From assembly GCA_043825875.1 (NCBI GenBank), contig JBDRRF010000031.1, forward strand, positions 32,001 through 96,000: a stretch of 64,000 nucleotides of DNA. Direction: 5' to 3'. Shown here in pieces: positions 4,119-48,849 of the stretch (position 1 is the first letter of the stretch; each line of letters begins with the position of its first letter). The translations under genes were made by a program, and so were the position numbers. Origin of the DNA: Pseudomonadota bacterium. Its GTDB lineage: Bacteria > Desulfobacterota > Desulfobacteria > Desulfobacterales > RPRI01. Below the pieces are notes generated by a model that did not search any database, had not been told where the DNA came from, and saw only the letters and a program-made list of their open reading frames with translations.

Positions 4119-4140
4119 AATAGATATGGGAAATAGATAA

Positions 4141-17036: not shown

Positions 17037-17600
17037 ATGAACCGCAAAAACCCATGGAAGGCAATAAGTACAAAAACGATCTATGAAAACCCTTGGCTTC
17101 GCTTACGTGAAGATAAAGTCATCCGGCCTGATGGTAAAGATGGGATTTATGGTGTAGTAGAAATAAAGCCATCGATAGGAGTTGTAGCTATAAATGAGAA
17201 AGATGAAATTGCTATAGTCGGGCAATGGAGATATACGCTTAATAAATACTCATGGGAAATTCCAACCGGAGGATCTGCAACAGAAGATGAAACAATCCTT
17301 GATGCAGCAAAAAGAGAACTTGAAGAAGAAACCGGAATTCAAGCCGCAGAATGGACTGCTCTCGGTAGTATAGACAATAGTAATGGAGTAACAACTGATG
17401 TGGCGCATTTGTTTCTGGCAAAGCATCTTACCTGTGCCACTTCCAAGCAGGAACCAAATGAACAGATAGTCAATAAATGGATAAGCTCTGAACGTGCAGT
17501 GCAGATGGTAATGGAAGGAGAAATTACCGAATCATGCAGCGTAGCTGCTATTCTCAAAGTTGACAAACTGAAAGCAAATAACTTCCATTTTAGCATATGA
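17037..17600 (+). CDS. NUDIX hydrolase (ADP-ribose pyrophosphatase-like)
   Basis: WEIPTGG...AAKRELEEETG Nudix box; QWRY. Confidence 0.9.
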   Translation: MNRKNPWKAISTKTIYENPWLRLREDKVIRPDGKDGIYGVVEIKPSIGVVAINEKDEIAIVGQWRYTLNKYSWEIPTGGSATEDETILDAAKRELEEETGIQAAEWTALGSIDNSNGVTTDVAHLFLAKHLTCATSKQEPNEQIVNKWISSERAVQMVMEGEITESCSVAAILKVDKLKANNFHFSI

Positions 17601-27715: not shown

Positions 27716-27787
27716 AAATATGCACTGCAATAGTGCATATTTTTCTAATATGCACTGATTATGCAAAAATCAGTGCATATTAGAAAA
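27716..27787. repeat. Tandem pair of perfect hairpins built from AATATGCACT at the fic 3' end
   Basis: 11-bp IR 27716-27742 and 20-bp IR 27741-27787 overlapping the fic stop. Confidence 0.8.
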
Positions 27788-32868: not shown

Positions 32869-33311
32869 ATTTATTAATTCCGTATTTTTTTATATTACAG
32901 ATTAGTGCCCAAGTTGATCGGTTTTGTTAACATGATAATAATACTAAAAGGATGTCTTATAATACTGTGAAATTCTGAACCTATCAATACCACAATTATG
33001 ATTATCGTGGCAACATCTATTCGATATTATTGTTATTACCAAACTTGTTCAACACACGATATATATTCTTAGTTAGTTAACTGTTCGATACTGCTGCGTC
33101 CTTGGCTGGCTCCTGCTCTTATGGAATTTGTTGCAATTCAAAGAACCTGGCACTTATGGCCTAAATGCCTTTGCATACTTTGTGAGAGATAAAACGAGGT
33201 AATCTTTCTTGCTGATTTAGGCTCAAAGCTATTTTCGATAATAAACATAAAGTATATCATGATCTCTTTATATTATAATAAAAGTATGTTAGAAGCATTT
33301 TTTGTTGTTTT

Positions 33312-33439
33312 TGTAAAGAAAACCGACGATTTTAGGGTTGCAGAAGATGTTTGTTGAATATAAATATAAAAAAATACATTAAATATAGGTAGTTGTATAA
33401 TATAATATTTTGTTCATAAAATTGTAAAGTATTCCGACA
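33312..33439 (+). promoter_or_regulatory. Two TGT-N11-ACA-type enhancer boxes
   Basis: TGTAAAGAAAACCGACG (33312-33328) and TGTAAAGTATTCCGACA (33423-33439). Confidence 0.5.
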
Positions 33440-33806
33440 GCTAAAAAGTGGTTGATGGAGAAAAAGCGGTTGTCAGTTGACAGTTTACAGTTTACGGTTA
33501 AAACAGTTCATAGGTTTTTGGGTTCATAACCTGAAAGATATGTATAACCATTTTGCTTCAGTTGGATGAACTGCTTTGTAAAAATTTTCATCTCAAAATT
33601 TTTACAAAAACTCTGAGAAATTTGTGTGCTCTGTGAGAGACAAAGTTATCTCATAAATTTATAAACTGATAAATAGGGTAAACATAGCATGTAACATATT
33701 AATATAGTATAAAAAATCATCTATTGATAACTTAACGGTATATATCCGGTAAGGAAAAGATCGGTGCTAACTTCGTAAATTAATTAAGATAAAGAAAAGA
33801 TTATCA

Positions 33807-33834
33807 TTGACTTATTGAGATAACATGATAAAGT
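33807..33834 (+). promoter_or_regulatory. Possible sigma70 promoter of the gsp operon
   Basis: TTGACT, 16-nt spacer, extended -10 TGn-TAAAGT. Confidence 0.35.
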
Positions 33835-33876
33835 TACACAGAATTATTAAGTTTGCTTGCCCTGGGGGGTCAAAAT

Positions 33877-34737
33877 ATGCTTTACCGAAAAGCAGATGCC
33901 TTGAGCATTATTAATGTAATAGTTTTAATTGTACTTATAGCTTTTGTGCTGGTTTGCGTAAGAACTTTCATTGCAAGAGTTTATAATGCTAAAGATGTTA
34001 AAACTCCGGCTCTTTTTCAGACTGCAAATTTTAAACATATAAAAAAAGGCCTGATGGAATATGAATCCATTCTAATTAACAACCCTTTTGGTTTTACAGC
34101 AGGTGCTTTAAAACCCTTAAGCGGTTCGTCTGTCAAACCACATTTTATTTCAGATATTAAACTTATAGGGACTATTTCGGGTGATGACATGTTTAGTTAT
34201 GCCGTATTTGCAGGCAGTGACGGCAAACAGGAAATATTTAAGTCAGGTGAATTCATACCGGGAAACGGCTTGCTAAAACAAGTGGAAAAAGACAAGGCTT
34301 TTATAGAATCAGAAGATGTGATCTCTGAAATTTCCATAGTGGAATCTATAGCTGCTGTGAATCAGAAAACAGCGCCCTCTAGTAATAACTTACCTTCTTA
34401 TGTAAATAAACTTGATAAAGGAGAGTATGTTATTGATCAGAAACTGGTTGAAAGTGCTTTGGAAAATCCGGGTCGTTTCCTTTCTAATATCAGGTTAATT
34501 CCAAATATGAAAAATAACCGGCAGGAAGGCTTCCTTCTAAGAGATATAAAAAAAGGTGAAATACAAGATAATCTGGGTTTAAAAAATGAAGATATTATTT
34601 TAAGAGTAAACAATTTTGATATTACAAACCCGGAAAATGCTCTTAAGGCTTTTACTGCCTTAAAGGGTACGAACAGGGTACGGCTTGATATCATAAGATC
34701 CGGTAAAAGAACTACAATGACCTATCAAATCAGGTAA
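33877..34737 (+). CDS. gspC: Type II secretion protein C with PDZ domain
   Basis: TM anchor; KLIGTI..D..FSYAVF HR domain; LGLKNEDIILRVN...LDIIRSG PDZ. Confidence 0.88.
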   Translation: MLYRKADALSIINVIVLIVLIAFVLVCVRTFIARVYNAKDVKTPALFQTANFKHIKKGLMEYESILINNPFGFTAGALKPLSGSSVKPHFISDIKLIGTISGDDMFSYAVFAGSDGKQEIFKSGEFIPGNGLLKQVEKDKAFIESEDVISEISIVESIAAVNQKTAPSSNNLPSYVNKLDKGEYVIDQKLVESALENPGRFLSNIRLIPNMKNNRQEGFLLRDIKKGEIQDNLGLKNEDIILRVNNFDITNPENALKAFTALKGTNRVRLDIIRSGKRTTMTYQIR

Positions 34738-34750
34738 GGATAAGGCGAGC

Positions 34751-36931
34751 ATGATCGGTAAAAAAATTAATTGGATGTTTTTATTGGCTGTATCTTTTAT
34801 ACTCATTATGGGTATTCTTCCGAATGGTTTTGCAGCATCAAAGGATACGGAGAAGATAAGCTTTAATTTTGTGGATATCGACCTTCCTGTAGTAGTAAAG
34901 TTTGTAAGTGAAATTACCGGAAAAAATTTTATTTTTGATGAGGATGTCAGGGGCAAGGTTACAATTATTGCTCCATCAAAAATCAGCATAAATGATGCAT
35001 TTGGCCTTTTTACGTCAGTGCTTGCATTAAAAGGCTATACAGTTATTCCAACCATAGCCGGTATGTATAAGATTATCCCTACTGCGAATGCAAGGCATAG
35101 CGGAATGGAAGTAACAAACGATGGGCTTCCGGCTAATGAAAATTATATAGCCAGACTTATTACGATCAAATATGTTTCTTCTGCAGAAACGCTTAAATTT
35201 ATTGCTCCCATGGTATCAAAAAATGGTTATGCATCAGTATTCGGGCCGGGCAATATGCTGCTTGTAATTGATTCAGGAATAAATATAAGAAAAATAGTAT
35301 CCATTATAGAATCAATCGACCAGCCGAGTGTGGGAGAGATGCCGGAAATTGTATATCTTAAATATGCCGGTGCTGAAGTTGTTGCCAAGACAATAAATGA
35401 TAATATCAGCAATCGTGGGATGCAAAACGGAATATCGTCTAATGCTTTGCCAGGCAGTGCAGGAAAGGCTGTTGCAGACCAGAGATTAAACGCAGTGATG
35501 CTGTTCGGGGATAAAGCAATGAAAGAATTAATGCGTTCCTTTATTTCCCTTCTTGATGTGCGCTCTCCTGATGCACAAGGTATGATCAATGTTTATTTCA
35601 TGGAGAATGCAGATGCAGTTGAACTTGCAAAAGTGTTGCAACTTCTTATACAAGCGGGACAGACAAAGCAGGCAGCTGCTTCCATGTCGGTGTTTGAAAC
35701 TGCCGGAGGCATTTCTATTACTGCGGATAAAGCGTCAAATGCTCTGGTAGTAGTTGCTACACCTACTGATTACCAGAATTTGTTACGAATCATAAAACAA
35801 CTTGATAAGAGAAGAAAGCAGGTTTTTGTGGAAGCCATGATTGCCGAGGTTTCTATTGGTAAATTGCTTGAACTTGGCTCAAAATGGCGCGCCGCAGTTA
35901 CAAAGGATGGAGAGCCTATCGTGGTGGGAGGAGTGGGAGAGGTAAATGCTTCAACTATAAGTTCCATCCTTTCCGGTATGACCGGTCTAACGCTGGGCGG
36001 TATGTCCAATTACTTCACGGTTCCGCAGGGTTTTGTACCTGGAGCAACTTCCGATGTTAAAGTTCCGGGAATTACTGCATTGTTTAGCATGAGTGAATTT
36101 AAAGATGCTGTAAATATTCTCTCAACACCGCAGATTCTTACTTCAGATAATATGGAGGCTGAAATCCTGGTTGGTGAAAATATACCTTTGATCTCATCGA
36201 GAGAAAGGGATATTAGTACCACCGCAACCGTTCTTACTTCCATAGAACGTAAAGATGTTGGTGTGCTTTTGAAGATTACACCTCAGATAAACGAGGGTGA
36301 ATATGTAAAACTGGATATATATCAGGAAATTTCGGCAGCGAAGGCAGATTCAGAAAATATTATAACATCAGTTGGTCCTACAATGACAAAAAGATCAACA
36401 AGAACATCCGTATCGGTAAAAGATAAGCAAACGGTTGTAATTGGTGGACTAATGGAAGAAAAAGATGAAGAATTAATTACAAAAGTTCCCTTTTTGGGAG
36501 ATATTCCCGTTTTGGGTTGGTTTTTTAAATTCAGGAGCACCAGCAGGACAAAGACAAATCTGTTAATATTTTTAACTCCTTATATTATTCATGAAGCTTC
36601 CGATCTTTCCACGCTTACTCAAAATAAATATAACGATTATATGCTTAATGGAATACAGTATGTCGAGGATGAATTGATGGTTCAATTTAAAGAAGGTATT
36701 CCCAAAGAAGTAATTCATAAAATATTGTCAGAACAAAAGGTGTCAAATATTGAAACCACCAGCAGCGGAGTTTATCATATTAAACTTGACAAGAATGTAG
36801 ATCTTAAGAAAGCGATAAATAAATATTCTTTAATTCCGGAAGTACAAAATGTTGAGCCTGTTCCGAGGATTAAGATTCAGGAATCAGGAGAGAAAAGCAG
36901 TAATCAGGAATCTGGGACAGCGGAACAATAA
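34751..36931 (+). CDS. gspD: Type II secretion secretin with extra C-terminal domain
   Basis: FNFVDIDL..VVKFVSEITGKNFI; QVFVEAMIAEV; NILSTPQILT; KVPFLGDIPVLGWFF; TNLLIFLTPYII. Confidence 0.95.
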   Translation: MIGKKINWMFLLAVSFILIMGILPNGFAASKDTEKISFNFVDIDLPVVVKFVSEITGKNFIFDEDVRGKVTIIAPSKISINDAFGLFTSVLALKGYTVIPTIAGMYKIIPTANARHSGMEVTNDGLPANENYIARLITIKYVSSAETLKFIAPMVSKNGYASVFGPGNMLLVIDSGINIRKIVSIIESIDQPSVGEMPEIVYLKYAGAEVVAKTINDNISNRGMQNGISSNALPGSAGKAVADQRLNAVMLFGDKAMKELMRSFISLLDVRSPDAQGMINVYFMENADAVELAKVLQLLIQAGQTKQAAASMSVFETAGGISITADKASNALVVVATPTDYQNLLRIIKQLDKRRKQVFVEAMIAEVSIGKLLELGSKWRAAVTKDGEPIVVGGVGEVNASTISSILSGMTGLTLGGMSNYFTVPQGFVPGATSDVKVPGITALFSMSEFKDAVNILSTPQILTSDNMEAEILVGENIPLISSRERDISTTATVLTSIERKDVGVLLKITPQINEGEYVKLDIYQEISAAKADSENIITSVGPTMTKRSTRTSVSVKDKQTVVIGGLMEEKDEELITKVPFLGDIPVLGWFFKFRSTSRTKTNLLIFLTPYIIHEASDLSTLTQNKYNDYMLNGIQYVEDELMVQFKEGIPKEVIHKILSEQKVSNIETTSSGVYHIKLDKNVDLKKAINKYSLIPEVQNVEPVPRIKIQESGEKSSNQESGTAEQ

Positions 36932-36975
36932 TAAGATGATAAGCAAAAAATAGACAATAGAATATATTAAAAATA

Positions 36976-38535
36976 ATGATCTGGACATTACTTGATGAAA
37001 AAATAGCTGCCCCGGCAGCAGGAACCACGATAAAACTTATCAAAGATAATGATGTGGATATTACTCTGTTAAGGCAGGTTCCCTACTTCTACTCAAAAAA
37101 CAATCTTATCATGCCATTAAGGATAAATGACGGTTTTTTGGTTGCCGCTGTATATGGTAACAACGGTCTTTTGGCTGCTGTTGAACTGGCGGGAAAATAC
37201 GGACTTAAAGCACATCCTTTAAGAGCGGAGCAAGGCATTATTACTGAGGCTATCAGTAAATTTTATGGCCAGATCAGTAATGCCGAAGAAGTTATGGACA
37301 ATATGGATGCAGAGGATCTGTCCTCTGTGGCCACCGAGTTTGAGAAGCCGCGGGATATCCTTGAGCTTACGGAAGATGCCCCTATCATAAGGCTTCTTAA
37401 TGCCCTTTTCCAGCAGGCATTCAAAGAAAGAGCAAGCGACATTCATATAGAGCCTTACGAAAAAGATCTTGAAGTCAGAATGCGAATTGACGGGATACTG
37501 CACAAGATTTTGCATCCTCCTAAAATTATCCAGGAAGCCCTGATAAGCAGGGTAAAAATTATGGCAAATCTTGATATTGCTGAAAAAAGACTTCCACAGG
37601 ATGGCCGGATAAGGCTTCTTATCGGAGGCCAGGATATCGATCTTAGAGTATCAATTATTCCTACATCATTTGGAGAAAGAGCAGTATTAAGGCTGCTCGA
37701 TAGAAAACAGGGGCTTATCGGTCTTTATGAAGTAGGTCTTGATAAAAAAGATGAGGTGAGATTTGAAAAACTGCTTGAAAATACAAGCGGTATCATCCTT
37801 GTAACCGGACCGACAGGAAGCGGCAAAACAACAACCCTTTATGCTGCTTTAAACAGAATCCATACTGAAGGAAGAAACATTATTACTGTAGAAGATCCTG
37901 TGGAGTATCAATTAAAGGGTATAGGGCAGATGCAGGTTAATCCAAAAATAGGCCTTACATTCGCATCCGGATTAAGATCAATATTAAGGCAGGACCCTGA
38001 TATTATAATGGTCGGTGAAATACGTGATTTTGAAACTGCTGAAATTGCAATCCAAGCCTCTCTTACGGGGCATCTTGTTTTAAGCACTCTTCATACCAAT
38101 GATGCTGTAGCAGCACTTGCACGGCTTGCCGATATGGGAATGGAGCCTTTCCTTGTTTCTTCTTCCCTTGTTGCTGTTGTTGCCCAGCGGCTTGTCAGAA
38201 CTATTTGCCCTCATTGCAAAGAAGTTTATCAGCCGCCATCTTCGGAAACGGCGTATTTCCCTTTACCTGTTAAACAATTATACAAAGGTAAAGGATGCAG
38301 TGAATGCAGACAAAGCGGCTATCTTGGAAGAACGGGGATTTATGAAATTCTTTCCATAGATAATAAACTTAGACAAATGATTGCGGCGCGTGTTGATGCG
38401 CAGACTATCAAAGATTATGCTGTTTCCAAAGGAATGAGAACCCTTTATTCGGAAGGCGTTGATAAGGTTATGAAAGGCATTACTACATTGCAGGAAATCT
38501 TGAGAGCTACGCAGAAAGACTATGCCGATATTTAA
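36976..38535 (+). CDS. gspE: Type II secretion ATPase
   Basis: ASDIHIEP; LDIAEKRLPQDGRI; GPTGSGKTTT; LRQDPDIIMVGEIRD; CPHC...CSEC. Confidence 0.95.
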   Translation: MIWTLLDEKIAAPAAGTTIKLIKDNDVDITLLRQVPYFYSKNNLIMPLRINDGFLVAAVYGNNGLLAAVELAGKYGLKAHPLRAEQGIITEAISKFYGQISNAEEVMDNMDAEDLSSVATEFEKPRDILELTEDAPIIRLLNALFQQAFKERASDIHIEPYEKDLEVRMRIDGILHKILHPPKIIQEALISRVKIMANLDIAEKRLPQDGRIRLLIGGQDIDLRVSIIPTSFGERAVLRLLDRKQGLIGLYEVGLDKKDEVRFEKLLENTSGIILVTGPTGSGKTTTLYAALNRIHTEGRNIITVEDPVEYQLKGIGQMQVNPKIGLTFASGLRSILRQDPDIIMVGEIRDFETAEIAIQASLTGHLVLSTLHTNDAVAALARLADMGMEPFLVSSSLVAVVAQRLVRTICPHCKEVYQPPSSETAYFPLPVKQLYKGKGCSECRQSGYLGRTGIYEILSIDNKLRQMIAARVDAQTIKDYAVSKGMRTLYSEGVDKVMKGITTLQEILRATQKDYADI

Positions 38536-39697
38536 ATATAAAGGGTATAATTCCAAGGGATCGGAAATAACAGGTACTATAGAAGCACAGGGGCGTTTTG
38601 ATGCCATTTCTGCTTTAAAGGCAAAACTGATCTTTCCAACAGATGTCCTGGAGGTAACCAAAAAGCCGATAAGAAGTATATTTCAGAAAAAAGATGATAC
38701 TTTTCTTCCGGATTTTACAAGAAATCTTTCGATGCTTCTTGCTTCCGGAGTTCAGTTGATGGATGCTCTGCAATCACTTTCTGATGAATATACCGGATAT
38801 TACGGGGATTTGCTGGTTCAAATAAAAGAAAGAGTATCTGCCGGCATGAGTCTGCATAAAGCACTGGAGGTTTATGGGGATTTTTTTCCGGAGTATTATA
38901 TTAATATGGTTCAGGCCGGCGAGACAAGTGGCTCTTTAGATATGGTTCTTGTAAAGATTGCCGATTTTCTTGAAACGCAGGCTTTCATTAAAGCAAAAGT
39001 TAGATCGGCAACTGCATACCCTCTTTTAATGGCCGGTGTAAGCTTATTGATTCTCTTCTTTCTGTTTTCTTTTGTAATGCCGAAGATTGTAAGAATATTT
39101 TCAGAAACAGGCGGTTCTCTGCCTTTTCTTACAGCAGCAATTATTGCGGTGAGCAATATTTTTTCCAAATACTGGTGGGCAATCATTGCGATATTTTTTT
39201 CGACAGCCTGGTTGTTAAGAAAGTTATTTAAAAAATACAGAACACAAATTGATGGCATTATTTTAAAACTGCCCGGTAATATTATTCAGAGCCTGTATTA
39301 TGCTAGATTTGCAAGGACAATGGGTGCTCTTCTTGAAGGGGGTATTCCATTACTTAAAGCGCTCAAACTTTCTGCAAAATCTATTGGCAACAGAAAACTG
39401 GAGCTTAATGTTCTCGATTCCGTAGAAAAGGTAGCAGGCGGACAGCAGATGTCTTCTTCTCTCTCCGGATTTCCGCCGCTTTTATTAAGACTTATATCTA
39501 CCGGTGAAAAAAGTGGCAATCTTGCTCAGACAATAAACAGAGCGGCTTTGTCTTATGAACAGCAATTTGCCAGAAAAATTGAAAAGGCATTATCTCTTTT
39601 TGAACCTGCAATGGTACTTTCAATGGGGGTTGTGGTTTGTATTATTGTTCTTGCTGTTTTACTTCCAATCTTTCAGATGAATCAATTGGTAAAATAA
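38522..39697 (+). CDS. gspF: Type II secretion inner-membrane platform protein
   Basis: MVQAGETSGSLD; AYP; GEKSGNL; FEP; LLPIFQMN. Confidence 0.93.
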   Translation: MPIFKYKGYNSKGSEITGTIEAQGRFDAISALKAKLIFPTDVLEVTKKPIRSIFQKKDDTFLPDFTRNLSMLLASGVQLMDALQSLSDEYTGYYGDLLVQIKERVSAGMSLHKALEVYGDFFPEYYINMVQAGETSGSLDMVLVKIADFLETQAFIKAKVRSATAYPLLMAGVSLLILFFLFSFVMPKIVRIFSETGGSLPFLTAAIIAVSNIFSKYWWAIIAIFFSTAWLLRKLFKKYRTQIDGIILKLPGNIIQSLYYARFARTMGALLEGGIPLLKALKLSAKSIGNRKLELNVLDSVEKVAGGQQMSSSLSGFPPLLLRLISTGEKSGNLAQTINRAALSYEQQFARKIEKALSLFEPAMVLSMGVVVCIIVLAVLLPIFQMNQLVK

Positions 39698-39698
39698 T

Positions 39699-39840
39699 GA
39701 GCCAGTTTCAAAACGTCCCATTTTGGCCGATCTCTGCGTTGGTTGAAAATTTTAATCCTCGAAATACTCCATGTATTCCTGCGGTTAAAATTTTCACCCG
39801 CCTTGATCTTGACCAAACTGAAACGTTTTGAAAGTGGCTC
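39699..39840 (+). mobile_element. 142-bp MITE, family A, copy 5 (TSD TAAT)
   Basis: TAAT at 39695-39698 (includes gspF stop) and 39841-39844. Confidence 0.92.
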
Positions 39841-39877
39841 TAATGCTTAGGATTTTACGTAATTATTGGGGTGAGAA

Positions 39878-40318
39878 ATGCAAAAAAAATATATTTCGAT
39901 AAAAGGCTTTACTTTAATTGAACTTGTTGTTGTGGTTTTTATTCTAAGTCTTTTAGCAGCGATAGTAGCTCCAAAGATTATCGGAAGAACTGATGATGCA
40001 CGCATTACAGAAGCAAAAGTACAAATTAAAAATTTTGAGACTGCCTTAAAACTTTTTAAAATTGATAATGGCTTTTATCCGGATACTCAACAGGGACTTG
40101 ATGCTCTTTCTATAAAGCCTGAGACAGGTCGAATACCCAATAACTACAGAACGGGCGGATACCTGGAACAGAAAAAGATACCGCTTGATCCGTGGGGGAA
40201 TTCATACATGTACATATCTCCAGGCATAAACGGAGATTTTGATATCATGAGTTTCGGAGATGATGGCAAAGAGGGCGGAGAAGGCAAGGATGCGGATATT
40301 AAAAATTGGGAAATGTAA
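39878..40318 (+). CDS. gspG: Major pseudopilin
   Basis: GFTLIEL; YPDTQQGLDAL; DPWGNSY; SFGDDGKEGGEGKDADI. Confidence 0.95.
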   Translation: MQKKYISIKGFTLIELVVVVFILSLLAAIVAPKIIGRTDDARITEAKVQIKNFETALKLFKIDNGFYPDTQQGLDALSIKPETGRIPNNYRTGGYLEQKKIPLDPWGNSYMYISPGINGDFDIMSFGDDGKEGGEGKDADIKNWEM

Positions 40319-40760
40319 GGATAGAGGTTTTACTCTTATAGAATTGATCGTTGTAGTTTTTATCATTTCTGTAATGCTCATGGTATCTTTCCCATATATT
40401 GGCTTCCGTGAAAGCGGCAAGTTAAAATCCGAAGCAGCGGTTTTAGCATCGGTTCTGCGTTATCTTAATGATAGTGCAGTGACTATGAAAGAAACATATG
40501 CGGTTAAATTTGATCTGGGCCAAAAAACAATCAGATATAAAGGCCCTGAAGGTGTAAAAACAGAGAAAATTGATGATCTTTCAAGTGTTTTGTTGCAAAC
40601 CAGAGGTATAATATCCGATGGAGAAGTAATTGTATTTTATACTCCATTGGGTGCTTCAGAAAGTTTTATGATTAATTTAAAACGTGATGATTATACTATT
40701 TCCGTTAGTTCAAATTCTCTGAGTGGCAGAATAAGTATAATAACACAGCATAAGGTTTGA
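40290..40760 (+). CDS. gspH: Minor pseudopilin H
   Basis: RGFTLIEL prepilin site; follows gspG. Confidence 0.8.
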   Translation: MRILKIGKCKDRGFTLIELIVVVFIISVMLMVSFPYIGFRESGKLKSEAAVLASVLRYLNDSAVTMKETYAVKFDLGQKTIRYKGPEGVKTEKIDDLSSVLLQTRGIISDGEVIVFYTPLGASESFMINLKRDDYTISVSSNSLSGRISIITQHKV

Positions 40761-41098
40761 TGATGCACAAAGGGTTCACTTTCCTTGAAATCATGATAAG
40801 CCTCGCAATTATAGGAGGACTTCTTTTTACCCTGATTTCTTCCCTTAATTACCATCTCGGTGTAGCTGAGAAGCAGATAGTCTTAACTACTATCGATAGG
40901 TTGGCACATGATAAGATCTATGAAATGGAGAAGAATCCTTCCGAAGATCGCGGAAATTTTCCAAAACCTTTTTCCGACATTCAATATGAAACCAGGGTGT
41001 CGGATTCAACATTTCCGGGTATGCTGGAAATCGGAGTAACTGTAATAAGTGGGAAAGAAAAACTTATACTATCTGAAATAATAACCGGGAAAAGATAG
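40757..41098 (+). CDS. gspI: Minor pseudopilin I
   Basis: KGFTFLEIMISLAII; operon position. Confidence 0.8.
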   Translation: MMMHKGFTFLEIMISLAIIGGLLFTLISSLNYHLGVAEKQIVLTTIDRLAHDKIYEMEKNPSEDRGNFPKPFSDIQYETRVSDSTFPGMLEIGVTVISGKEKLILSEIITGKR

Positions 41099-41117
41099 TT
41101 GCAGAGAAAGGGGCAAG

Positions 41118-41756
41118 GTGAAAGAATCAAGGACTAAAGGTTTCACATTATTAGAAATCCTGATATCGATAGCCATATTGTCTGTGGTACTTACAGCTCT
41201 TTATAATACCTTTTTTCTTTCTCACAAAGCGCTTGCAGCCGTTGATGGAACCCTGCTTAAACTTCAGGAATCCCGTGCTTTCGTTGATATATTAAAAAGA
41301 GAGATAGAATCCGTAATTTATTCTCGTGATAACAGCTACACTGTGTTCAGGATGGATGACAGAGATTATTATGGTCGTCAGGCCTCCCAGCTTACCATGA
41401 GCTCATTGTCTCCTTTAACAAACGGTATGGCTAAAATAAACTATACCACGGAAGAAAGAGATGGCAGATTGATTATAACAAAAGAAATAAAATCAGCATT
41501 TTTACAACCGGATTTATCTCAAAAAACACAAAGCCATAAAATTGATATGATAGAAGATGTTCAATCTTTTACCGTAGAGTGCAAATATGGGAACCGCTGG
41601 GTAAAAACATGGGACAGCGCATTGACAAAAAATGTTCCGAACGAGATAAAAATTTCAGTTACGTTTTATATTTCAAATAAAGAAACACGGGATAATACCG
41701 GCAGACTATTTGTGATTTCCGATATAGCAAAACCCAGAATAGGGAAGAACTTATAA
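41118..41756 (+). CDS. gspJ: Minor pseudopilin J
   Basis: KGFTLLEILISIAILS; WVKTWDS...P..IKI. Confidence 0.85.
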   Translation: MKESRTKGFTLLEILISIAILSVVLTALYNTFFLSHKALAAVDGTLLKLQESRAFVDILKREIESVIYSRDNSYTVFRMDDRDYYGRQASQLTMSSLSPLTNGMAKINYTTEERDGRLIITKEIKSAFLQPDLSQKTQSHKIDMIEDVQSFTVECKYGNRWVKTWDSALTKNVPNEIKISVTFYISNKETRDNTGRLFVISDIAKPRIGKNL

Positions 41757-42668
41757 ATGGCTTCCAATAAGGGTATGGCTCTTATACTGACGCTGATGAT
41801 CCTTGCGATAATGACAACAATGGTTGTTGAGTTTGTGCATGAAGTATATTCAACCAATGCAATTTTAAATAACTGGAGAATCAGCCGCCAACTTTCGTTA
41901 ACTGCAAAATCAGGAATTACTATTGTTAAAAAAATAATTTCCGATAATCAGTCACGTTATGCATATACATATCCGGGTAAATATGAAGTTCCTTTGGGAA
42001 ACATATTTGGTGAAAATGCTGATGGGTCCGGCGGCAAGGTTTTTGTGAATGTTGAGGATGAGAACGCAAAATTTAATGTAAACAGTATTGTCTGGCCTAA
42101 TGGAACTACTAATGAATCTTCAATAGATTCATTTAAAAGGCTTTTAAAAAATATTAAGCTTGATGAGCAAGTTGCATACAGGGTTGCTGACTGGATAGAT
42201 CCTGACAGCGAATCAAGGATGGGAAGATCCGAGCAGGGTGCTAAAAACGCTTATCTGGACAGCATTGATGAGCTAAAACTTATAAATGGAATGGATTCTA
42301 AAACGTACGAAGTATTAAAGCCTTTTATTACGGTATATGGTGCTGAAGGTGTTACATCTAATATTATAAATATCAATAGTGCACCATTGCCGGTAATTAT
42401 GGCCCTGAATGCCGAAATCACTAAAGATCTTGCAGAAAGAATTATAAAGTACAGAGGTCTTGAGCCTCTCGAAACTCCAAGTGATCTGGTTAAAATAGCA
42501 GGCTTTGAAGGTTCTTTGGGGCAGTCACTTATCGGTATGCTTATAGTAAAAGCCGTAAATTTTAAAATAACATCATTTGCAGAGGATAATAAGATAAAGA
42601 GAATTATAGAATGTGTTGTGGAAAATAAAGGCGATAAATTTTTAACCAAATACTGGTGTGAAAGGTGA
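41757..42668 (+). CDS. gspK: Minor pseudopilin K
   Basis: KGMALIL; EDENAKFNVN; ADWIDPD; SIDELKLINGM; ININSAP. Confidence 0.9.
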   Translation: MASNKGMALILTLMILAIMTTMVVEFVHEVYSTNAILNNWRISRQLSLTAKSGITIVKKIISDNQSRYAYTYPGKYEVPLGNIFGENADGSGGKVFVNVEDENAKFNVNSIVWPNGTTNESSIDSFKRLLKNIKLDEQVAYRVADWIDPDSESRMGRSEQGAKNAYLDSIDELKLINGMDSKTYEVLKPFITVYGAEGVTSNIININSAPLPVIMALNAEITKDLAERIIKYRGLEPLETPSDLVKIAGFEGSLGQSLIGMLIVKAVNFKITSFAEDNKIKRIIECVVENKGDKFLTKYWCER

Positions 42669-42701
42669 AAATAGCCAAATCGTGAATAACGTTATAATCA
42701 T

Positions 42702-42843
42702 GAGCCAGTTTCAAAACGCCCCATTTTGGCCGATCTCTGCGTTGGGCTCAAATTTCAATCCTCGAAATACTCGATGTATTCCTGTGGTTGAAATTTTCGC
42801 CCGCCTTGAGCTTGACCAAACTGAAACGTTTTGAAAGTGGCTC
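42702..42843 (+). mobile_element. 142-bp MITE, family A, copy 6 (TSD TCAT)
   Basis: TCAT at 42698-42701 and 42844-42847. Confidence 0.92.
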
Positions 42844-42862
42844 TCATGCAAATTGGAGCATT

Positions 42863-43975
42863 ATGAAAAAAATCGGTTTTATTGATATTCATCCGGGCGG
42901 TTCTATTTCTACTTTTTGCATAAAACAGGATGAAAGTGAGAAATGGCAGGATAATACTCTTGTTTATATTTTCAAAGAGCATTCCGGAAAAATTGAGCTT
43001 GACAAAACACTTGAATATTCATCCGATGAGAATTTAGAGGATATCAATGATTTTTATTTGAGTATCCCCATGGAGTTATTAAATTTCAGGATAATTAATC
43101 TTCCATATTCAGATAAGGAAAAATTGGGTAAAGCAATCCCTTTAGAACTTGGAAGCCTTATTGAAGGTGGTGATCCTGAAGATATTGTTTTTGAAACAGT
43201 TGTTCTTAAAAACACCGATTCCGGATTTGATATACTGATAGTTTATGCCGACAAAAGCTGCATTAATGCTGTAATTGAAAAGCTTGCTCTGAAAAATATT
43301 GATCCACGTATTATAACATCAATAGATCTTGCTAATATCATTCAAATGGGTGAAGGCACACTTTCTTTTGTTGAACGCCTCGCAAGTAAGGAAAATAAGG
43401 AAGAAATTGACAGAACAGGTTCAGCAGCAAATGAACTTTTTCACCCGACCATAAATTTAAGATCCGGTCCTTTAGCCTATACAAAAGATATTGCCAGAAG
43501 AAAACGTATACTGAAAAAAACAGTGATTTTAAGTTTTTTACTGGCATTTATTATAAATGCCAACATTGTTATCAATCTGACAATAACAAATAAAGATATT
43601 TCTTCACAGAAGAAAAGTTTAAGGAAAATGTATGCAGCTTTGTTTCCGGAAGAAAAGAAAATAGTTAATGAAGTATATCAGTTAAAATCTCATATCAAAG
43701 AGTTGAAAAAAAAGAGTGATGCCTTAACAGGAGTAAATCCAATCGATTTTCTTCTAAAACTTTCTCACGAACAAATAGGAGGAGTTGTATATAACGAGAT
43801 CTGGTTCGAAAAAGGATTTATTAAAATGAAGGCCGAAGCAGTTTCAATGGAAGTTGTTGACAAGGCCAGGGGGAAGTACTCAAAATACTTATCAGATGTT
43901 TTGATCACAGATATTAAACCGGCAACCGACGGAAAGGTTTTTTTTACTGTTGTTGCTAAAGAAAGGCCTGAATAA
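42863..43975 (+). CDS. gspL: Type II secretion protein L
   Basis: Actin-like FIDI / FRIINLPY..KEKL..AIPLEL; INLRSGPLAY; single TM; GGAG RBS before ATG 42863. Confidence 0.8.
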   Translation: MKKIGFIDIHPGGSISTFCIKQDESEKWQDNTLVYIFKEHSGKIELDKTLEYSSDENLEDINDFYLSIPMELLNFRIINLPYSDKEKLGKAIPLELGSLIEGGDPEDIVFETVVLKNTDSGFDILIVYADKSCINAVIEKLALKNIDPRIITSIDLANIIQMGEGTLSFVERLASKENKEEIDRTGSAANELFHPTINLRSGPLAYTKDIARRKRILKKTVILSFLLAFIINANIVINLTITNKDISSQKKSLRKMYAALFPEEKKIVNEVYQLKSHIKELKKKSDALTGVNPIDFLLKLSHEQIGGVVYNEIWFEKGFIKMKAEAVSMEVVDKARGKYSKYLSDVLITDIKPATDGKVFFTVVAKERPE

Positions 43976-43977
43976 AA

Positions 43978-44526
43978 ATGGACCTAAGGCAAATTCCCGA
44001 AAAATTATCGCAAAATATCAGTAGAACATATTCGCGTAATGATATTATTATACTATTTCTTCTTCTATGTTTATTTCTTCTTATTATTCCTATGCACATG
44101 CTTAATAAAAAAGCAGAAAAAGAACTATCAGCTCTAAAAATAAGGCAAAATGATTTTTATACCTTAAGCAATGAATACAAGAAGCTGAATGTACACGTTA
44201 GCGCTATTGAAAGCAAAAGATCTTTGTCAAAGGCCGACAGTATTATTTATGCTTTAGATGAAGTATTTTTGCCGCTTGGTATTAAAGGGAAAATAAAATC
44301 TATAAAAGGTTTTGAGGATAGAGAAATAGAAGGCATGATGAATGAAAAAAGCGCTGAGGTTATGATAGAACAGATCAGTCTCAATGAACTGGTAAATATT
44401 TTTTATAAAATTGAAAATGTACCTATGCTTCTTAAGATAAATAACGCATCTATAAAAAAATCATTTGCATTCCCTGAACTTTTAGATATTTCTATGAGTA
44501 TATCTTTATTTACCGAAAAAGTTTAA
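43978..44526 (+). CDS. gspM: Type II secretion protein M
   Basis: TM + coiled coil; ISLNELVNIFYKIEN ferredoxin-like domain; operon position. Confidence 0.75.
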   Translation: MDLRQIPEKLSQNISRTYSRNDIIILFLLLCLFLLIIPMHMLNKKAEKELSALKIRQNDFYTLSNEYKKLNVHVSAIESKRSLSKADSIIYALDEVFLPLGIKGKIKSIKGFEDREIEGMMNEKSAEVMIEQISLNELVNIFYKIENVPMLLKINNASIKKSFAFPELLDISMSISLFTEKV

Positions 44527-44563
44527 TTAGCCCATATAAAACGGATAACAAGTTTAACTAAAA

Positions 44564-45322
44564 ATGAAAAAAGCAGCCCTTTTTATCGCAGTTGCATTCT
44601 TTGTCTTTTGGGGGCTATGGATAATAGCAATCCCAAAAAAAATTGTGTCGGATTATATCTCAAACTCTCTGAAAAAATATAGCATTATTATAGATTTGGA
44701 TGGTTTTGAAAAAGGACTTTTTTATAGCATAAAAAAACAAAATGTTCAGGTAAGCAGTACTGATGGTACTTTGATTTTAGTAATAAATAATCTAAAAGCC
44801 GGAATAAATTTTGCTTCTTTTTTAAAATTATCTCCGACTATAGATTTTCATTGCAATATCAATCAAGGAGATGTTGATGGAAATGTCGGTTTTAAAAAAG
44901 GTACCGGCCTTGTTGCACGAATTAAGGGAAGTGGTATTGATATTAAAGACTTGCCTGTAGTTGAAAGTTTATATGGAATCAGCGGTACAGGAGATATTAA
45001 TTTTGATTTTTTGAAAATAAAAGATAAAAGTAATATTAAGTTTTCTATAAATAATGCAGATATAAAAAGTATCGGACTTATTCCGTTTGATTTGTTTAAA
45101 AAAATGCGTGGAGAAATGTTTGAGGAGAATGGATTAATTACCGTAAAATCTTTGGCAATGGAGGGAAATGGAATATACGCCAGGGCCAAAGGTTATATAA
45201 AAGGAAATAATAGAGATTTGAAAATGGAGATAATGGTGAATTCTTCTTCTGATATGAAACCGTCATATCTTGGAGCTCTTGAAAAATACAGGGTTTCACC
45301 CGGTTATTATGTAATCAGATGA
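44564..45322 (+). CDS. gspN: Type II secretion protein N
   Basis: N-terminal anchor, beta-rich body, last gene after gspM. Confidence 0.65.
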   Translation: MKKAALFIAVAFFVFWGLWIIAIPKKIVSDYISNSLKKYSIIIDLDGFEKGLFYSIKKQNVQVSSTDGTLILVINNLKAGINFASFLKLSPTIDFHCNINQGDVDGNVGFKKGTGLVARIKGSGIDIKDLPVVESLYGISGTGDINFDFLKIKDKSNIKFSINNADIKSIGLIPFDLFKKMRGEMFEENGLITVKSLAMEGNGIYARAKGYIKGNNRDLKMEIMVNSSSDMKPSYLGALEKYRVSPGYYVIR

Positions 45323-45328
45323 AAGGTG

Positions 45329-46687
45329 CTATTCTTTCGGGATTTCAAACTTTTCCATAAGATCATATAAAGTCGGGCGGCTTATGCCAAGCTCACAAGC
45401 AGCTTTTGTCAGATTGCTGTTGTTTTTGAAAAGTGCTTTTAAAATAAGTTCTTTTTCTAAAGCTTCGCGTGCTTCTTTGAGCCCCATACCTTCAAATTTA
45501 GCAGGTGCAGAAGATTTCATCTCAAGATCTTCAGGGCTTATTTTACCGCCTTCAGCCATTATAACGGCACGTTTTATACGGTTTTCAAGTTCTCTGATAT
45601 TTCCCGGCCATTCATATTGCTCAATAGCATTGATTGCATCAGATGTGTAGCCTTTTATTTTTTTTCTGTTTTCATCTGTATATCGCTCAAGAAAAGCTTT
45701 AGCCAAAAGCAATACATCTCCTTTTCTTTCTCTTAAAGGAGGAAGTGCTATGGAAATTACTCCCAGACGATAATATAGATCATTTCTGAAACTTCCATCT
45801 TTCATTGCCTCTTCCAGATCGCGGTTTGTAGCAGAAAGAACACGGGTATCAACTTCAATTTCTTCCCTTCCTCCTACTCGTTCGATAACTTTTTCCTGAA
45901 GGAATCGCAGAAGTTTAACTTGAAGAGAGAGCGGGAGTTCGCCTATTTCATCTAAGAACAGGGTACCCCCTTCAGCCATTTCAATACGGCCTTTACGTTG
46001 CGTATGAGCACCTGTGAAAGATCCCTTTTCATGTCCGAAAAGCTCACTTTCAAGAAGATTTTCAGGTATGGCGCCGCAGTTAATAGCAATAAAAGAATTG
46101 GATTTGCGGTTACTAAGACTGTGAATAGCACGGGCGACCAGTTCCTTGCCCGTACCACTTTCTCCTGTTATAAGAACAGGTGCATCTGTTGTTGACACCT
46201 TTTTTATAGTTGAAAACACTTCCTGTATTTTGGGGCAGGTGCCAAGCATGCCTTCAAAGGAGTTGCCGCTCAACCGGCTCTGTAGTATACGCTGTTCCTG
46301 CTCAAGATAAGATACATAAAAAGCGCGTTTTAAAACAACCTTAAGTTCATCTATTTGTATCGGTTTGTAGAAAAAATCATATGCACCTTGTGCTACAGCG
46401 CGCAGGGCGTTTTCTTTTTCTCCGCGTCCGGTAATGATAATTACCTTGAGCTGTCTGTTTTCGGTAAGGATTTCAGACAAGGTCAGAAAGCCTTCTTCCA
46501 CACCTGCCGGATGTGGAGGCAACCCAAGATCAAGTGTAATAACAGCTGGGGTTTCCTTTTTAAATAAAGCAAGAGCGCTCTTTCGATCTTCGGCCAGAAA
46601 AACTCTGTAGTCATTGGATAGAGCCCACTTCATCTGCGTTCTCAAATCTTCATCATCATCTACTATCAGTAATTTTGGTTTTTTCAT
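45329..46687 (-). CDS. prsR: PEP-CTERM-box sigma54-dependent response regulator
   Basis: LDLGLPPHP..VEEG receiver typical of PrsR; GESGTGKE; GSFTGA; WPGNIRELEN; LGISRPTLYDLM. Confidence 0.88.
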   Translation of the reverse strand: MKKPKLLIVDDDEDLRTQMKWALSNDYRVFLAEDRKSALALFKKETPAVITLDLGLPPHPAGVEEGFLTLSEILTENRQLKVIIITGRGEKENALRAVAQGAYDFFYKPIQIDELKVVLKRAFYVSYLEQEQRILQSRLSGNSFEGMLGTCPKIQEVFSTIKKVSTTDAPVLITGESGTGKELVARAIHSLSNRKSNSFIAINCGAIPENLLESELFGHEKGSFTGAHTQRKGRIEMAEGGTLFLDEIGELPLSLQVKLLRFLQEKVIERVGGREEIEVDTRVLSATNRDLEEAMKDGSFRNDLYYRLGVISIALPPLRERKGDVLLLAKAFLERYTDENRKKIKGYTSDAINAIEQYEWPGNIRELENRIKRAVIMAEGGKISPEDLEMKSSAPAKFEGMGLKEAREALEKELILKALFKNNSNLTKAACELGISRPTLYDLMEKFEIPKE

Positions 46688-46743
46688 CCCTTGTCCTTAA
46701 ATATTGTGACTATATATCCTGACAATATATGAACCGTTTTTCT

Positions 46744-48849
46744 TTATTTACTGCTTATCGGCAAAAACACCCTAAACATTGACCAGTTATTTTCTTTACT
46801 TTCAACCTCTATCCTGCCGCCATGAGCTTCAACAATTGTTTTACAGTGAAACAGACCGATTCCCATGCCCTGTTTTTTTGTTGTCCTGAAAGGCCGGAAC
46901 AGATCTTTTGCTATAAATTCCTCAGACATTCCGCAACCATTGTCATAGATAGAGATTTGTGCCCAATTTTCTTTACAGGCAGTTTCAACTATAATTTTAC
47001 CATCCTGTTCTATGGCATCACAGGCATTCATAAGAAGATTCTCGAGTACTTTATTAATTTGTTCAGGATCTATAAAAAGCAAAGGAACATTGTTTAAGTT
47101 TTGCAAAACAGACCCTTGGGTATATCCTTTAATATCAGATACGGCAGATGTAATCATCTCATTAAGATCAGTCTTTTGTACAGAAAGTTCCAGCTTTTGG
47201 CTTAAAAGAGAGAGGCGGCTGCTCATGCTGTTTATCTTTGATACGCTTTGTGAAATTGTTTTAAGAGCATCGGCACGAAATTCAGGGTTATCTATAAGAA
47301 CAGGTAGGTTCTGTGTTACAAGAGAAAGTTTTGTCGCAAGATTTTTCAGGTCATGCATAAAAAAAGCAGACATGGCCTGGAATGCCTCTAGCTCTTTTAC
47401 TTTGCGAAGATGTTCCGAAAGCCTCAAATTCTGCAAGATAGCAGCCGCCTGATCGGCAATGGTTCTAACAAGTTCAGTTTCTTCAAAAGAAAGGGGCTCA
47501 TAAAAAACTTTTTCGCTTAACGTCATAATCCCGATAAGTTGACCTGCGGCATTTAGCGGGACACAGTATCTTATACTCGATTCGCGTGTTTCTGCATCAT
47601 AGATGCGGTTTAGAGACTTCACCCAGCTGGCTGTATTTCCTTTAAGATCAAGCAAAACAGATTGTTCTTCCATTGTGCGGATAAGATCAGCAATATTATA
47701 ACCTGAAAAACTCATTGTATCTGCTTTTGCATCCGTAAATACTGTTGAACCTTCTAAAGACATCCTTTCCTGTTTCTCATCAACTATCCAGATGCTTACG
47801 GATAGAATCTCCATTGTTTCAGAGACCATGTTTACAATAATGCTGCAAAGATCTTTTGTTTGTGTAACAGAAGCGGTTCTGTTTGTAAAATCTCCCCAGA
47901 TTTTCCGGTAGTCATATTGGGGCCGTTTGAAATGACGGCTTATAAAACGTTTTCTTTTTACCCGCAGACGGTCTGAAAGCAGCAGACTTATTATTACGAT
48001 TAAAGCTACAAATGCTAAAAATATTATTAGATAAGTATTATCGATCCATGCAAAATGAACGGAAAGCCATGTCAGTGTTCCTACTAATATAAAGTAGATG
48101 CCCGCGATAAGCATTGTAAATGAATTATATAAAAGCTGATGGGAAAGCTGAATACTGGCATTAAGAGGTTTCCCACGTAATAGTGACCGTAAAATAAGGA
48201 TTGCGGCTACAAGAAGCGCTCCTTGATTAATAACATAAAGACCTGTAGTTACACCTTTGAAAAGCAGTACATAGCTATATGTGAAAAGTCGTATTCCTAT
48301 CATAGCTCCCAAGCCGAGAAACATAAATTTGGTTTGCCAGCGTATATGACCTGTGGAATGTCGGAATGTTCTTTCAAAATTCATCAGAATCAGGATTGCA
48401 GATAATATCCAGATAAGATGCCATATATATCCTGAATTTCCGATTGCTATAAAAAGTTCTGAGGTTTTTGTTAAAACGGGTTCTCCCGAAAAGAAAGAGT
48501 TTCTGAAAAAAATGGCTATTAATACAGGCAGAATAAAAAATGAAATAATGACCCATTTCCATTTTGATATCTGTTCCATATAATTAGCTCGGGCAAAGCT
48601 TATGCTGAAAAGAAGCCAGACAGATGGCAGAAATGAAGCGGTTATTGACTGGAAATGCTGTCGAATTAAAAAATTATCTATAGATAATGACTGGAAAAGA
48701 AACCCGGTTAATGCGGCATTTACTGAACATAAAATCATGCCTGCTGCAAAAATACGATGAATAAAAGAGCGAGGTTCTCGCCACAGCGCAAGAAGCGCAA
48801 TTCCTGCTGCTACCGCAGCCGCTACATATGAGATAGTTAAGGTAAACAT
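46744..48849 (-). CDS. prsK: PEP-CTERM system histidine kinase
   Basis: Multi-TM N-term; RFISRHF...YDYR..W; GAF; SAFFMHDLKN; FRPFRTTK..GMGIGL. Confidence 0.88.
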   Translation of the reverse strand: MFTLTISYVAAAVAAGIALLALWREPRSFIHRIFAAGMILCSVNAALTGFLFQSLSIDNFLIRQHFQSITASFLPSVWLLFSISFARANYMEQISKWKWVIISFFILPVLIAIFFRNSFFSGEPVLTKTSELFIAIGNSGYIWHLIWILSAILILMNFERTFRHSTGHIRWQTKFMFLGLGAMIGIRLFTYSYVLLFKGVTTGLYVINQGALLVAAILILRSLLRGKPLNASIQLSHQLLYNSFTMLIAGIYFILVGTLTWLSVHFAWIDNTYLIIFLAFVALIVIISLLLSDRLRVKRKRFISRHFKRPQYDYRKIWGDFTNRTASVTQTKDLCSIIVNMVSETMEILSVSIWIVDEKQERMSLEGSTVFTDAKADTMSFSGYNIADLIRTMEEQSVLLDLKGNTASWVKSLNRIYDAETRESSIRYCVPLNAAGQLIGIMTLSEKVFYEPLSFEETELVRTIADQAAAILQNLRLSEHLRKVKELEAFQAMSAFFMHDLKNLATKLSLVTQNLPVLIDNPEFRADALKTISQSVSKINSMSSRLSLLSQKLELSVQKTDLNEMITSAVSDIKGYTQGSVLQNLNNVPLLFIDPEQINKVLENLLMNACDAIEQDGKIIVETACKENWAQISIYDNGCGMSEEFIAKDLFRPFRTTKKQGMGIGLFHCKTIVEAHGGRIEVESKENNWSMFRVFLPISSK

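Follow-up and report, generated by a model that had tools for sequence, protein, structure and literature searches.

A 64,000-nucleotide stretch of contig JBDRRF010000031.1 (positions 32,001 to 96,000 of the forward strand; assembly GCA_043825875.1, a Pseudomonadota bacterium placed in Desulfobacterales), hereafter the window, carries a type II secretion system (T2SS) operon, gspCDEFGHIJKLMN, next to the two-component genes prsK and prsR, with two copies of a short regulatory box upstream of gspC. We consider it probable that an ordinary T2SS, PrsKR and the orphaned enhancer of a lost divergent PEP-CTERM gene simply lie side by side at this locus. An initial annotation of this DNA had placed the T2SS under the control of PrsR by way of the boxes. 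The part of that proposal concerning the boxes stood, as they correspond to an enhancer of the PrsR regulon. Its target did not, given the reversed orientation of the boxes, the lack of a sigma-54 promoter (-24/-12 element) toward gspC, the divergent PEP-CTERM gene found beside them in the relatives G011 and G013, the lack of boxes in the relative G008, and the predicted sigma-70-type promoter of the operon itself. The parts of the locus are all of known kinds (general T2SS, PrsKR, motif 1 and Gabija), and their arrangement is explained by local rearrangement beside a defence island. Throughout, G000 denotes the genome of the window (4.77 Mb, a draft of 118 contigs), G008, G011, G013, G009, G010, G015, G002 and the other G-numbers denote its relatives, L-numbers denote loci of these relatives, and C-numbers denote contigs.

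Regulatory boxes upstream of gspC

The features of the intergenic region on which this reading depends are as follows.

33312-33328, minus strand: box (motif 1 copy), reading TGTAAAGAAAACCGACG on the plus strand and CGTCGGTTTTCTTTACA on the minus strand, 24.6 bits
33423-33439, minus strand: box (motif 1 copy), reading TGTAAAGTATTCCGACA on the plus strand and TGTCGGAATACTTTACA on the minus strand, 27.1 bits
33266-33438, minus strand: putative enhancer relic, homologous to the distal two-box segment of G013 (L027 2795-2968; 74% identity by blastn and alignment)
33807-33834, plus strand: predicted sigma-70-type promoter of the gsp operon, TTGACT, 16 nt, TG-n-TAAAGT (extended -10)

Both exact TGTAAAG-N4-CCGACR boxes named in the initial annotation were recovered, at 33312 and 33423, 111 bp apart. 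With up to two mismatches allowed, the window holds five matches against 1.37 +/- 1.16 in shuffled sequences (five were reached in none of 100 shuffles), and the whole 4.77-Mb genome contains eight exact boxes where 0.21 are expected from base composition. The two boxes start 438 and 549 bp before the gspC ATG at 33877, and their scores lie within the training range of the weight matrix (19.5-27.7 bits). They read YGTCGG-N4-CTTTACA on the minus strand, that is, pointing away from gspC.

The other box-like matches of the window sit in coding sequence and were set aside, at 13590 (within an 801-aa open reading frame, ORF, at 12590-14995), 38950 (gspF) and 48606 (prsK). Of the five other orphan boxes checked elsewhere in G000, four fall within long ORFs (C90:11749, C42:5462, C86:10531 and C103:97145); the fifth, C5:48917, is intergenic, with a weak sigma-54 match of 7.4 bits.

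Box regulon in the genome and genus

According to the available part of Haft 2006 (PMC1569441), motif 1, the predicted PrsR site, is a 17-nt element ending in TTTACA and sometimes repeated; it is followed by a spacer of mean length 62.8 nt (range 32-92), then by motif 2, the sigma-54 -24/-12 element, and then by ~71 nt to the start codon. The same part of the source reports this arrangement before 99 of 167 proteobacterial PEP-CTERM genes, with a distribution that matches PrsK, PrsR and PrsT. As far as that description goes, the same cis-region is present in G000, with a 17-nt box, optional repeats, a -24/-12 element and a single PEP-CTERM gene, and it tracks PrsR. It differs in the distance from the proximal box to the -24/-12 element, which is 62-149 nt in G000, and the window pair differs further in having neither motif 2 nor a PEP-CTERM gene.

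Six exact boxes lie outside the window, on C42, C57 and C76; each either precedes a PEP-CTERM gene or stands at the C42 contig end. Boxes with one mismatch are present on C42, C50, C57, C76 and C105, and all these contigs have PEP-CTERM genes by domain search. All eight arrays examined in G000 share one layout, in which one to three boxes reading YGTCGG-N4-CTTTACA on the gene strand are followed by TGGYAY-N5-TTGCT and then by the gene. Each of them has a -24/-12 element with at most three mismatches to the consensus, scoring 18.5-23.3 bits with the weight matrix. This arrangement precedes seven of the 11 PEP-CTERM genes detected, and one more array stands at the end of C42 with its gene off the contig. 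No box was found upstream of the PEP-CTERM genes C9:27053, C9:30412 and C38:44260, and the region upstream of C83:580 is off its contig.

Box number also follows PrsR among the congeners. Exact boxes number 38 in G008, nine in G011 and 17 in G013, which are PrsR-positive, against one in G009 and none in G010, which are PrsR-negative; a reversed-pattern control gave 0-1 matches. The genome-wide scan of PEP-CTERM promoters suggested in the initial annotation was thus positive, and on sequence grounds the window boxes are motif-1 enhancer boxes of the PEP-CTERM/PrsR regulon, that is, predicted PrsR sites. That the box count tracks PrsR within one genus also confirms, cleanly though on a small scale, the 2006 prediction of motif 1 as the PrsR site.

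The spacing between boxes is mostly 99-112 bp (111 bp in the window, 111 bp in G011 and 112 bp in G013; 110, 100, 99, 112, 112 and 108 bp elsewhere in G000). A spacing of ~110 bp, about ten helical turns, may reflect phasing or the tandem duplication of a ~110-bp unit. At C42:16619-17256, three exact boxes and the top-scoring -24/-12 element (TGGTATATAAATTGCT at 17218) stand at the very end of the contig, and the gene that they drive falls outside it. A contig end also truncates the C50 array, and the start of the PEP-CTERM gene C83:580 is missing from its contig. The assembly may be breaking at such arrays.

In activators of the NtrC type, the phosphorylated regulator assembles on enhancer boxes and activates the sigma-54 holoenzyme. 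By analogy with this family, phosphorylated PrsR would assemble on the 17-bp motif-1 boxes and act on sigma-54 holoenzyme at a -24/-12 element 60-150 nt downstream. A comparable gene is pepA of Aquincola tertiaricarbonis, a PEP-CTERM gene for which the available part of PMC9850573 describes a mapped RpoN-dependent -24/-12 element and a predicted enhancer upstream; prsK, prsR and prsT are described there as needed for floc formation. That case is experimental and comes from a betaproteobacterium, whereas here the evidence is sequence only and the gsp operon has no such promoter.

The same intergenic region in relatives

The gspN-prsR-prsK arrangement is kept in three congeners, namely G008 (89-99% amino acid identity) and G011 and G013 (63-89%). 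In G013, a PEP-CTERM gene of 229 aa (L027 1599-2288, minus strand) is divergent from gspC (3191, plus strand); the boxes at 2504, 2841 and 2953 (plus strand) have the standard orientation for the PEP-CTERM gene, and the -24/-12 element AGGCATATTCATTGCA points at the same gene. The corresponding region of G011 consists of gspC (L025 2621-3532, minus strand), boxes at 3752 and 3863 (minus strand), the sigma-54 site AGGCACGCAATTTGCT and a PEP-CTERM gene at 4074-4766 (plus strand). Both divergent genes carry the PEP-CTERM domain TIGR02595, at 23.0 bits in G013 and 24.9 bits in G011 (cut-off 16). Motif 1 lies on the gene strand in all ten promoter-bearing arrays (eight in G000, one in G011 and one in G013), while the window boxes are in the opposite orientation relative to gspC.

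Homology between G000 and G013 in the intergenic region is restricted to 33266-33438, which holds the distal two boxes, and to the gspC promoter block (blastn). From the comparison with L025 and L027, GajA of the defence island occupies the place that the PEP-CTERM gene has in G011 and G013. Genes that flank gspC in G011 and G013 are found on C42 in G000 (a FemAB-type protein, 74% identity; a nucleotidyltransferase, 90% identity). G008, the closest relative, has no boxes upstream of gspC and has an SLT transglycosylase gene there instead. A match with two mismatches in G008 (L026 4086-4102) falls inside the SLT transglycosylase ORF and was rejected as a box.

In G011 and G013, the T2SS operon stands between an exosortase-prsK-prsR module and the box-driven PEP-CTERM gene. 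In G011 (L018 1122-4569), a small four-helix-bundle gene separates prsK from the exosortase gene upstream of it. This exosortase is short and fits no named subtype, its best match, XrtC-like, reaching 177.8 bits where the cut-off is 300. G013 (C135:19402-20124) also encodes an exosortase upstream of prsK. The orthologous exosortase gene of G000 and G008 is on another contig, and a thiolase gene follows prsK there.

Promoters around the boxes

Sigma-54 sites toward gspC were searched for with the consensus (at most three mismatches), with a weight matrix trained on the eight local promoters and with the bare GG-N10-GC pair, and the interior of the operon and of prsRK was included. Neither strand of the 1008-bp intergenic region (32869-33876) contains a GG-N10-GC pair, and the weight matrix gives no match of at least 6 bits in it, the best one downstream of the boxes scoring 1.8 bits. 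The initial annotation had itself cautioned that no intact -24/-12 element lies downstream of the boxes, and the empty scan of both strands agrees with it. No sigma-54 site was found in the internal gaps of the gsp operon, and the interior of the operon and prsRK gave only coding-region matches with two or three mismatches. In the weight-matrix and GG-N10-GC scans, no -24/-12 element faces gspC in G000, G008, G011 or G013. A GG-N10-GC pair picked out by eye at 33866-33881, with four mismatches to the consensus, overlaps the gspC start codon, in a segment encoding an N-terminus conserved as protein in G013, and was for that reason rejected as a promoter.

A different element precedes gspC in these genomes. 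A promoter block of ~30 nt is nearly invariant in G000, G008, G011 and G013 (0-2 differences in 30 nt among the three relatives), while the remaining intergenic DNA has diverged. Of the sites in the promoter scan, only the one within this block, at 33807-33834, has an extended -10 TG; next come a G-rich ribosome site and, ~40 bp after the promoter, the ATG at 33877. We infer that the gsp operon is transcribed from this sigma-70-type promoter of its own.

The proposal of a dedicated T2SS for exosortase-processed proteins, with its gsp operon activated by PrsR from the two boxes and so under PrsK/PrsR control, now appears highly improbable. Although true boxes of the PrsR regulon stand 438 and 549 bp before the gspC ATG, and prsRK adjoin the operon in four congeners, three of which have boxes upstream of gspC, no -24/-12 element lies toward gspC in these four genomes or inside the operon, and the box orientation is the reverse of that in every promoter-bearing array. 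The boxes of G011 and G013 have a sigma-54 promoter and a PEP-CTERM gene of their own on the other side, and G008 is without boxes; the operon is present without PrsR in G009, G010 and G015, and the conserved sigma-70-type promoter lies before gspC. The gsp operon thus departs from the PrsR regulon in all three features compared, namely box orientation, a -24/-12 element between boxes and gene, and conservation of the site with PrsR. For annotation, the lesson is that boxes in divergent intergenic regions should be assigned to a gene by their orientation and partner promoter, not by the nearest large operon.

The boxes might instead act leftward, with PrsR driving a minus-strand transcript (an unannotated small RNA, an unannotated peptide or the Gabija operon) from a non-consensus promoter. 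For a leftward target they have the standard orientation and scores equal to those of working copies, and GajA starts 444 bp to the left. To our knowledge, NtrC-type activators act only on the sigma-54 holoenzyme, which counts against such a promoter, and the minus strand of 32869-33876 has no GG-N10-GC pair. There is also no ORF of at least 50 aa within 32869-33311, and to the left of 33266 the sequence shows no relation to the PEP-CTERM promoters of either G011 or G013. We regard leftward action as very unlikely.

Linkage between the gsp operon and PrsR

An orthologous gspC-N operon (35-80% amino acid identity) is found in G009, G010 and G015, which have no PrsR over the cut-off and no exosortase. 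No prsRK genes lie within 4.5-5.5 kb downstream of these three operons, and no boxes lie upstream of those in G009 and G010. In a survey of 61 genomes from the genus and order, 46 have GspN over the cut-off, 17 have exosortase and, with the 22 best candidates scored per genome, eight have PrsR. PrsR and GspN are on different contigs in G002, G035, G057 and G060, and no T2SS gene lies in the PrsR flanks examined; G002 has PrsR with no orthologous gsp operon adjoining. No exosortase gene lies near GspN in the 61 genomes outside G011 and G013, the closest pair on one contig being 328 kb apart (G052).

A wider scan, with one genome per species, gave 80 PrsR-like loci. The first 22 were tested by NCBIfam, of which 18 were over the PrsR cut-off while L045 and L047-L049 failed; the other 58 (39-45% identity) were left out of the PrsR count. 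In three of those 58 (L084, L089 and L093), a GspE- or GspF-like match lies 3-9 kb from the regulator. The 18 PrsR loci come from Verrucomicrobiota, Acidobacteriota, Alpha-, Beta- and Gammaproteobacteria, Malonomonas and others, and each has a PrsK gene just upstream. No T2SS genes were found in the flanks of these PrsK-PrsR loci of other phyla and classes, where the downstream flank covered 10 kb in twelve and 5.9 kb in one. Adjacency of PrsR and a T2SS was found in four of the 26 PrsR loci examined, all in one genus. The phylogenetic profiling and the test of conserved linkage put forward with the initial annotation therefore both speak against its proposal: the gsp operon occurs without PrsR or exosortase in G009, G010 and G015, GspN is far more widespread than PrsR (46 against eight of the 61 genomes), and the adjacency is confined to those four loci. 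Among the literature titles and abstract openings found, none ties PrsR or exosortase to a T2SS operon.

A functional coupling without shared regulation is a separate explanation, in which the general T2SS would be the outer-membrane exit of exosortase-processed PEP-CTERM proteins, and selection would have gathered exosortase, prsKR and PEP-CTERM genes around the T2SS in this subclade. It is suggested by G011 and G013, where exosortase-(small gene)-prsK-prsR borders the operon at one end and the box-driven PEP-CTERM gene borders it at the other. GspN is over the cut-off in 16 of 17 exosortase-positive relatives against 30 of 44 without exosortase, also in the direction of coupling, in a comparison of non-independent genomes that genome size may confound. 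The linkage evidence points the other way, as T2SS genes are missing from the flanks of all 18 PrsK-PrsR loci of other phyla and classes, PrsR and GspN are separated in the four relatives named above, exosortase is near GspN only in G011 and G013, and both flanking modules are already broken up in G000 and G008. We judge this coupling unlikely; if it were true, the clustering would reflect function, not co-transcription, and the orphaned boxes would mark a cluster later broken by the defence island.

The coupling has a precedent in other systems. According to the available part of PMC11980579, T2SS-dependent surface delivery occurs with GlyGly-CTERM/rhombosortase in Vibrio and MYXO-CTERM/myxosortase in Myxococcus, so that T2SS carries C-terminally sorted proteins across the outer membrane. 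These systems differ from exosortase/PEP-CTERM in their sorting enzymes and signals, and their T2SS is general, neither dedicated nor co-regulated; an exosortase/PEP-CTERM equivalent was not found in that part of the source. As the route of PEP-CTERM proteins across the outer membrane appears unsettled in the literature available, a PrsR-controlled dedicated T2SS would be a useful lead, but on this evidence the present locus is not such a system.

Probable origin of the window boxes

In the reading that we prefer, gspCDEFGHIJKLMN would be the ancestral general type II secretion operon of the genus, driven by its own promoter at 33807-33834, and prsK-prsR would be the two-component system of the PEP-CTERM/exosortase regulon. 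The window boxes would be the distal pair of the enhancer of a PEP-CTERM gene once divergent from gspC, as it is in G011 and G013. In G000, where homology breaks at ~33266 and a Gabija and SoFic island lies to the left, this gene would have been lost or moved together with its sigma-54 promoter and the proximal box. With these parts gone, the boxes would now be an orphaned enhancer without a promoter, and at most decoy sites for PrsR. The locus would then be an example of an enhancer outliving its promoter and gene beside a defence-island insertion.

Several points weigh against this reconstruction. Enhancers of sigma-54 activators can work in either orientation, and orientation alone leaves an effect on gspC possible. 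Both boxes are still perfect matches, which could mean retained function or merely recent loss, and the PEP-CTERM modules on both sides of the T2SS in G011 and G013 fit selected clustering as well as chance. The sigma-70-type promoter is a consensus match backed by conservation, and the promoter scan as a whole was not above chance (eight sites against 6.0 +/- 2.8 in shuffles). With 22 best candidates per genome scored in the survey of relatives, some PrsR may be missed. Finally, G000 is a draft of 118 contigs, and the join at 33266 is taken as the assembly gives it.

The T2SS operon

In the ORF list of the window, twelve plus-strand ORFs in the order C-D-E-F-G-H-I-J-K-L-M-N span 33853/33877-45322. 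Their assignments from the profile search of the window proteins are as follows.

33877-34737, plus strand: gspC (NF041515 GspC_delta 135.1 bits, below the cut-off of 150; Pfam T2SSC 27.8 bits, cut-off 27)
34751-36931, plus strand: gspD, secretin (TIGR02517 496 bits, cut-off 351.35)
36976-38535, plus strand: gspE, ATPase (TIGR02533 688.7 bits, cut-off 630.25)
38522-39697, plus strand: gspF, platform protein (Pfam T2SSF 193.4 bits; TIGR02120 361.7 bits, below the cut-off of 424)
39878-40318, plus strand: gspG, major pseudopilin (TIGR01710 170.1 bits, cut-off 88.85)
40260-40760, plus strand: gspH, minor pseudopilin (N_methyl domain; weak GspH match below cut-off)
40757-41098, plus strand: gspI, minor pseudopilin (N_methyl domain)
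41118-41756, plus strand: gspJ, minor pseudopilin (N_methyl domain; weak GspJ match below cut-off)
41757-42668, plus strand: gspK (NF037980 145.6 bits, cut-off 130)
42788-43975, plus strand: gspL (weak matches of ~20 bits, below cut-off)
43978-44526, plus strand: gspM (without family match)
44564-45322, plus strand: gspN (TIGR04411 77.6 bits, cut-off 50)

Five of the products (GspD, GspE, GspG, GspK and GspN) are over NCBIfam cut-offs, while GspC, GspF, GspH, GspI, GspJ and GspL have matches below cut-off or to domains only (NCBIfam, Pfam); for GspI, the N-methylation domain is the sole match in either collection. The names of the three minor pseudopilins are partly positional, and GspL and GspM take their names from position and from synteny with seven congener operons, in which the gene order of the operon is kept. 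The ORF of gspC opens with TTG at 33853, and the ATG at 33877 is the likely start, with an N-terminus, MLYRKAD, that is common to the G013 ORF.

The gene order from C to N is the same as in the general T2SS, as represented by the delta/Leptospira-type models GspC_delta and GspN_Lepto. The window operon differs in that its GspL and GspM are too diverged for the models, a prepilin peptidase gene is absent from the operon, and GspD has a Fervidolysin_NPro-like C-terminus. This C-terminal extension, unusual for GspD, covers residues 634-703 and matches Fervidolysin_NPro-like at 34.9 bits and Peptidase_S8_N weakly.

The prsR-prsK genes and their junction with gspN

45329-46687, minus strand: prsR, sigma-54-dependent response regulator (TIGR02915 652.3 bits, cut-off 502.6)
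46744-48849, minus strand: prsK, histidine kinase (TIGR02916 401.8 bits, cut-off 300)

The identities given to prsK and prsR in the initial annotation hold, both products being over their cut-offs. PrsR has Response_reg, Sigma54_activat and HTH_8 domains (Pfam), and it is the only one of 102 TIGR02915 matches in G000 over the cut-off, the runner-up scoring 429.5 bits. The gene prsK is directly upstream of prsR on the same strand. As expected from the known association of PrsK/PrsR with PEP-CTERM/exosortase systems, on which the proposal had drawn, G000 holds two exosortases, one of them XrtD-type at 414.1 bits (profile search of the genome), and 11 PEP-CTERM domain matches. RpoN (452.3 bits) and PrsT-like TPR proteins (TIGR02917, 396.4 bits summed over a C54 frame) are also present. 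The sigma-54 regulatory repertoire of G000 is very large, at ~38 full-length activator homologues (E-values of 1e-84 or better), and includes only one PrsR.

The operon, which is complete from gspC to gspN, had been described as ending 6 bp from the convergent prsR, and the stop codons bear this out: that of gspN is TGA at 45320-45322 and that of prsR is at 45329-45331 (CTA on the plus strand). A gap of 6 bp is seen only in G000, the gap being ~159 bp in G008, ~140 bp in G011 and ~234 bp in G013 as estimated from tblastn match ends. This leaves no room for terminators between the convergent gspN and prsR of G000. Between the two genes, G008 (L019 11314-11470) is ~150 bp longer than window 45323-45328, with a short direct repeat (..CAGATGA..) seen by eye at the bounds, pointing either to a small insertion in G008 or to a deletion in G000.

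The left flank and its defence island

27770-28870, minus strand: SoFic-type Fic protein (PADLOC SoFic 379.4 bits; Pfam Fic_N, Fic and SoFic-like_C)
29019-30947, minus strand: GajB, UvrD-like helicase (PADLOC GajB 590.6 bits; Pfam UvrD-helicase)
30937-32868, minus strand: GajA, OLD-family ATPase with TOPRIM (PADLOC GajA 645.6 bits; Pfam AAA_15 and OLD-like_TOPRIM)
32869-33265, no strand assigned: spacer without homology to the G013 or G011 intergenic region (blastn)

The GajA and GajB ORFs are on the same strand and overlap by 11 nt, and adjacent GajA and GajB identify the pair as Gabija. The spacer contains a dispersed repeat at ~32961-33103 that is also found on C45, C76, C79, C51, C10 and C84 (blastn). 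A chimeric assembly join at the boxes was considered and thought unlikely; the homology break is 46 bp outside the first box.

Right of the boxes, repeats of ~40-65 nt at 33462-33503 and 33582-33644 (77-94% identity) recur in intergenic DNA of C40, a polysaccharide-synthesis-like locus, of C42, and of C56, where the copy is near the second exosortase gene; a further copy lies just after the PEP-CTERM gene of G013. Positions 33575-33608 form a near-perfect inverted repeat (TTGTAAAAATTTT..AAAATTTTTACAA). In G008, the genes left of gspC encode SLT, an FMN reductase, a glyoxalase, a HepT/MNT pair, a YhcG nuclease and Fic fragments, a set different from the Gabija and SoFic island of G000, which makes the left flank of gspC a variable spot.

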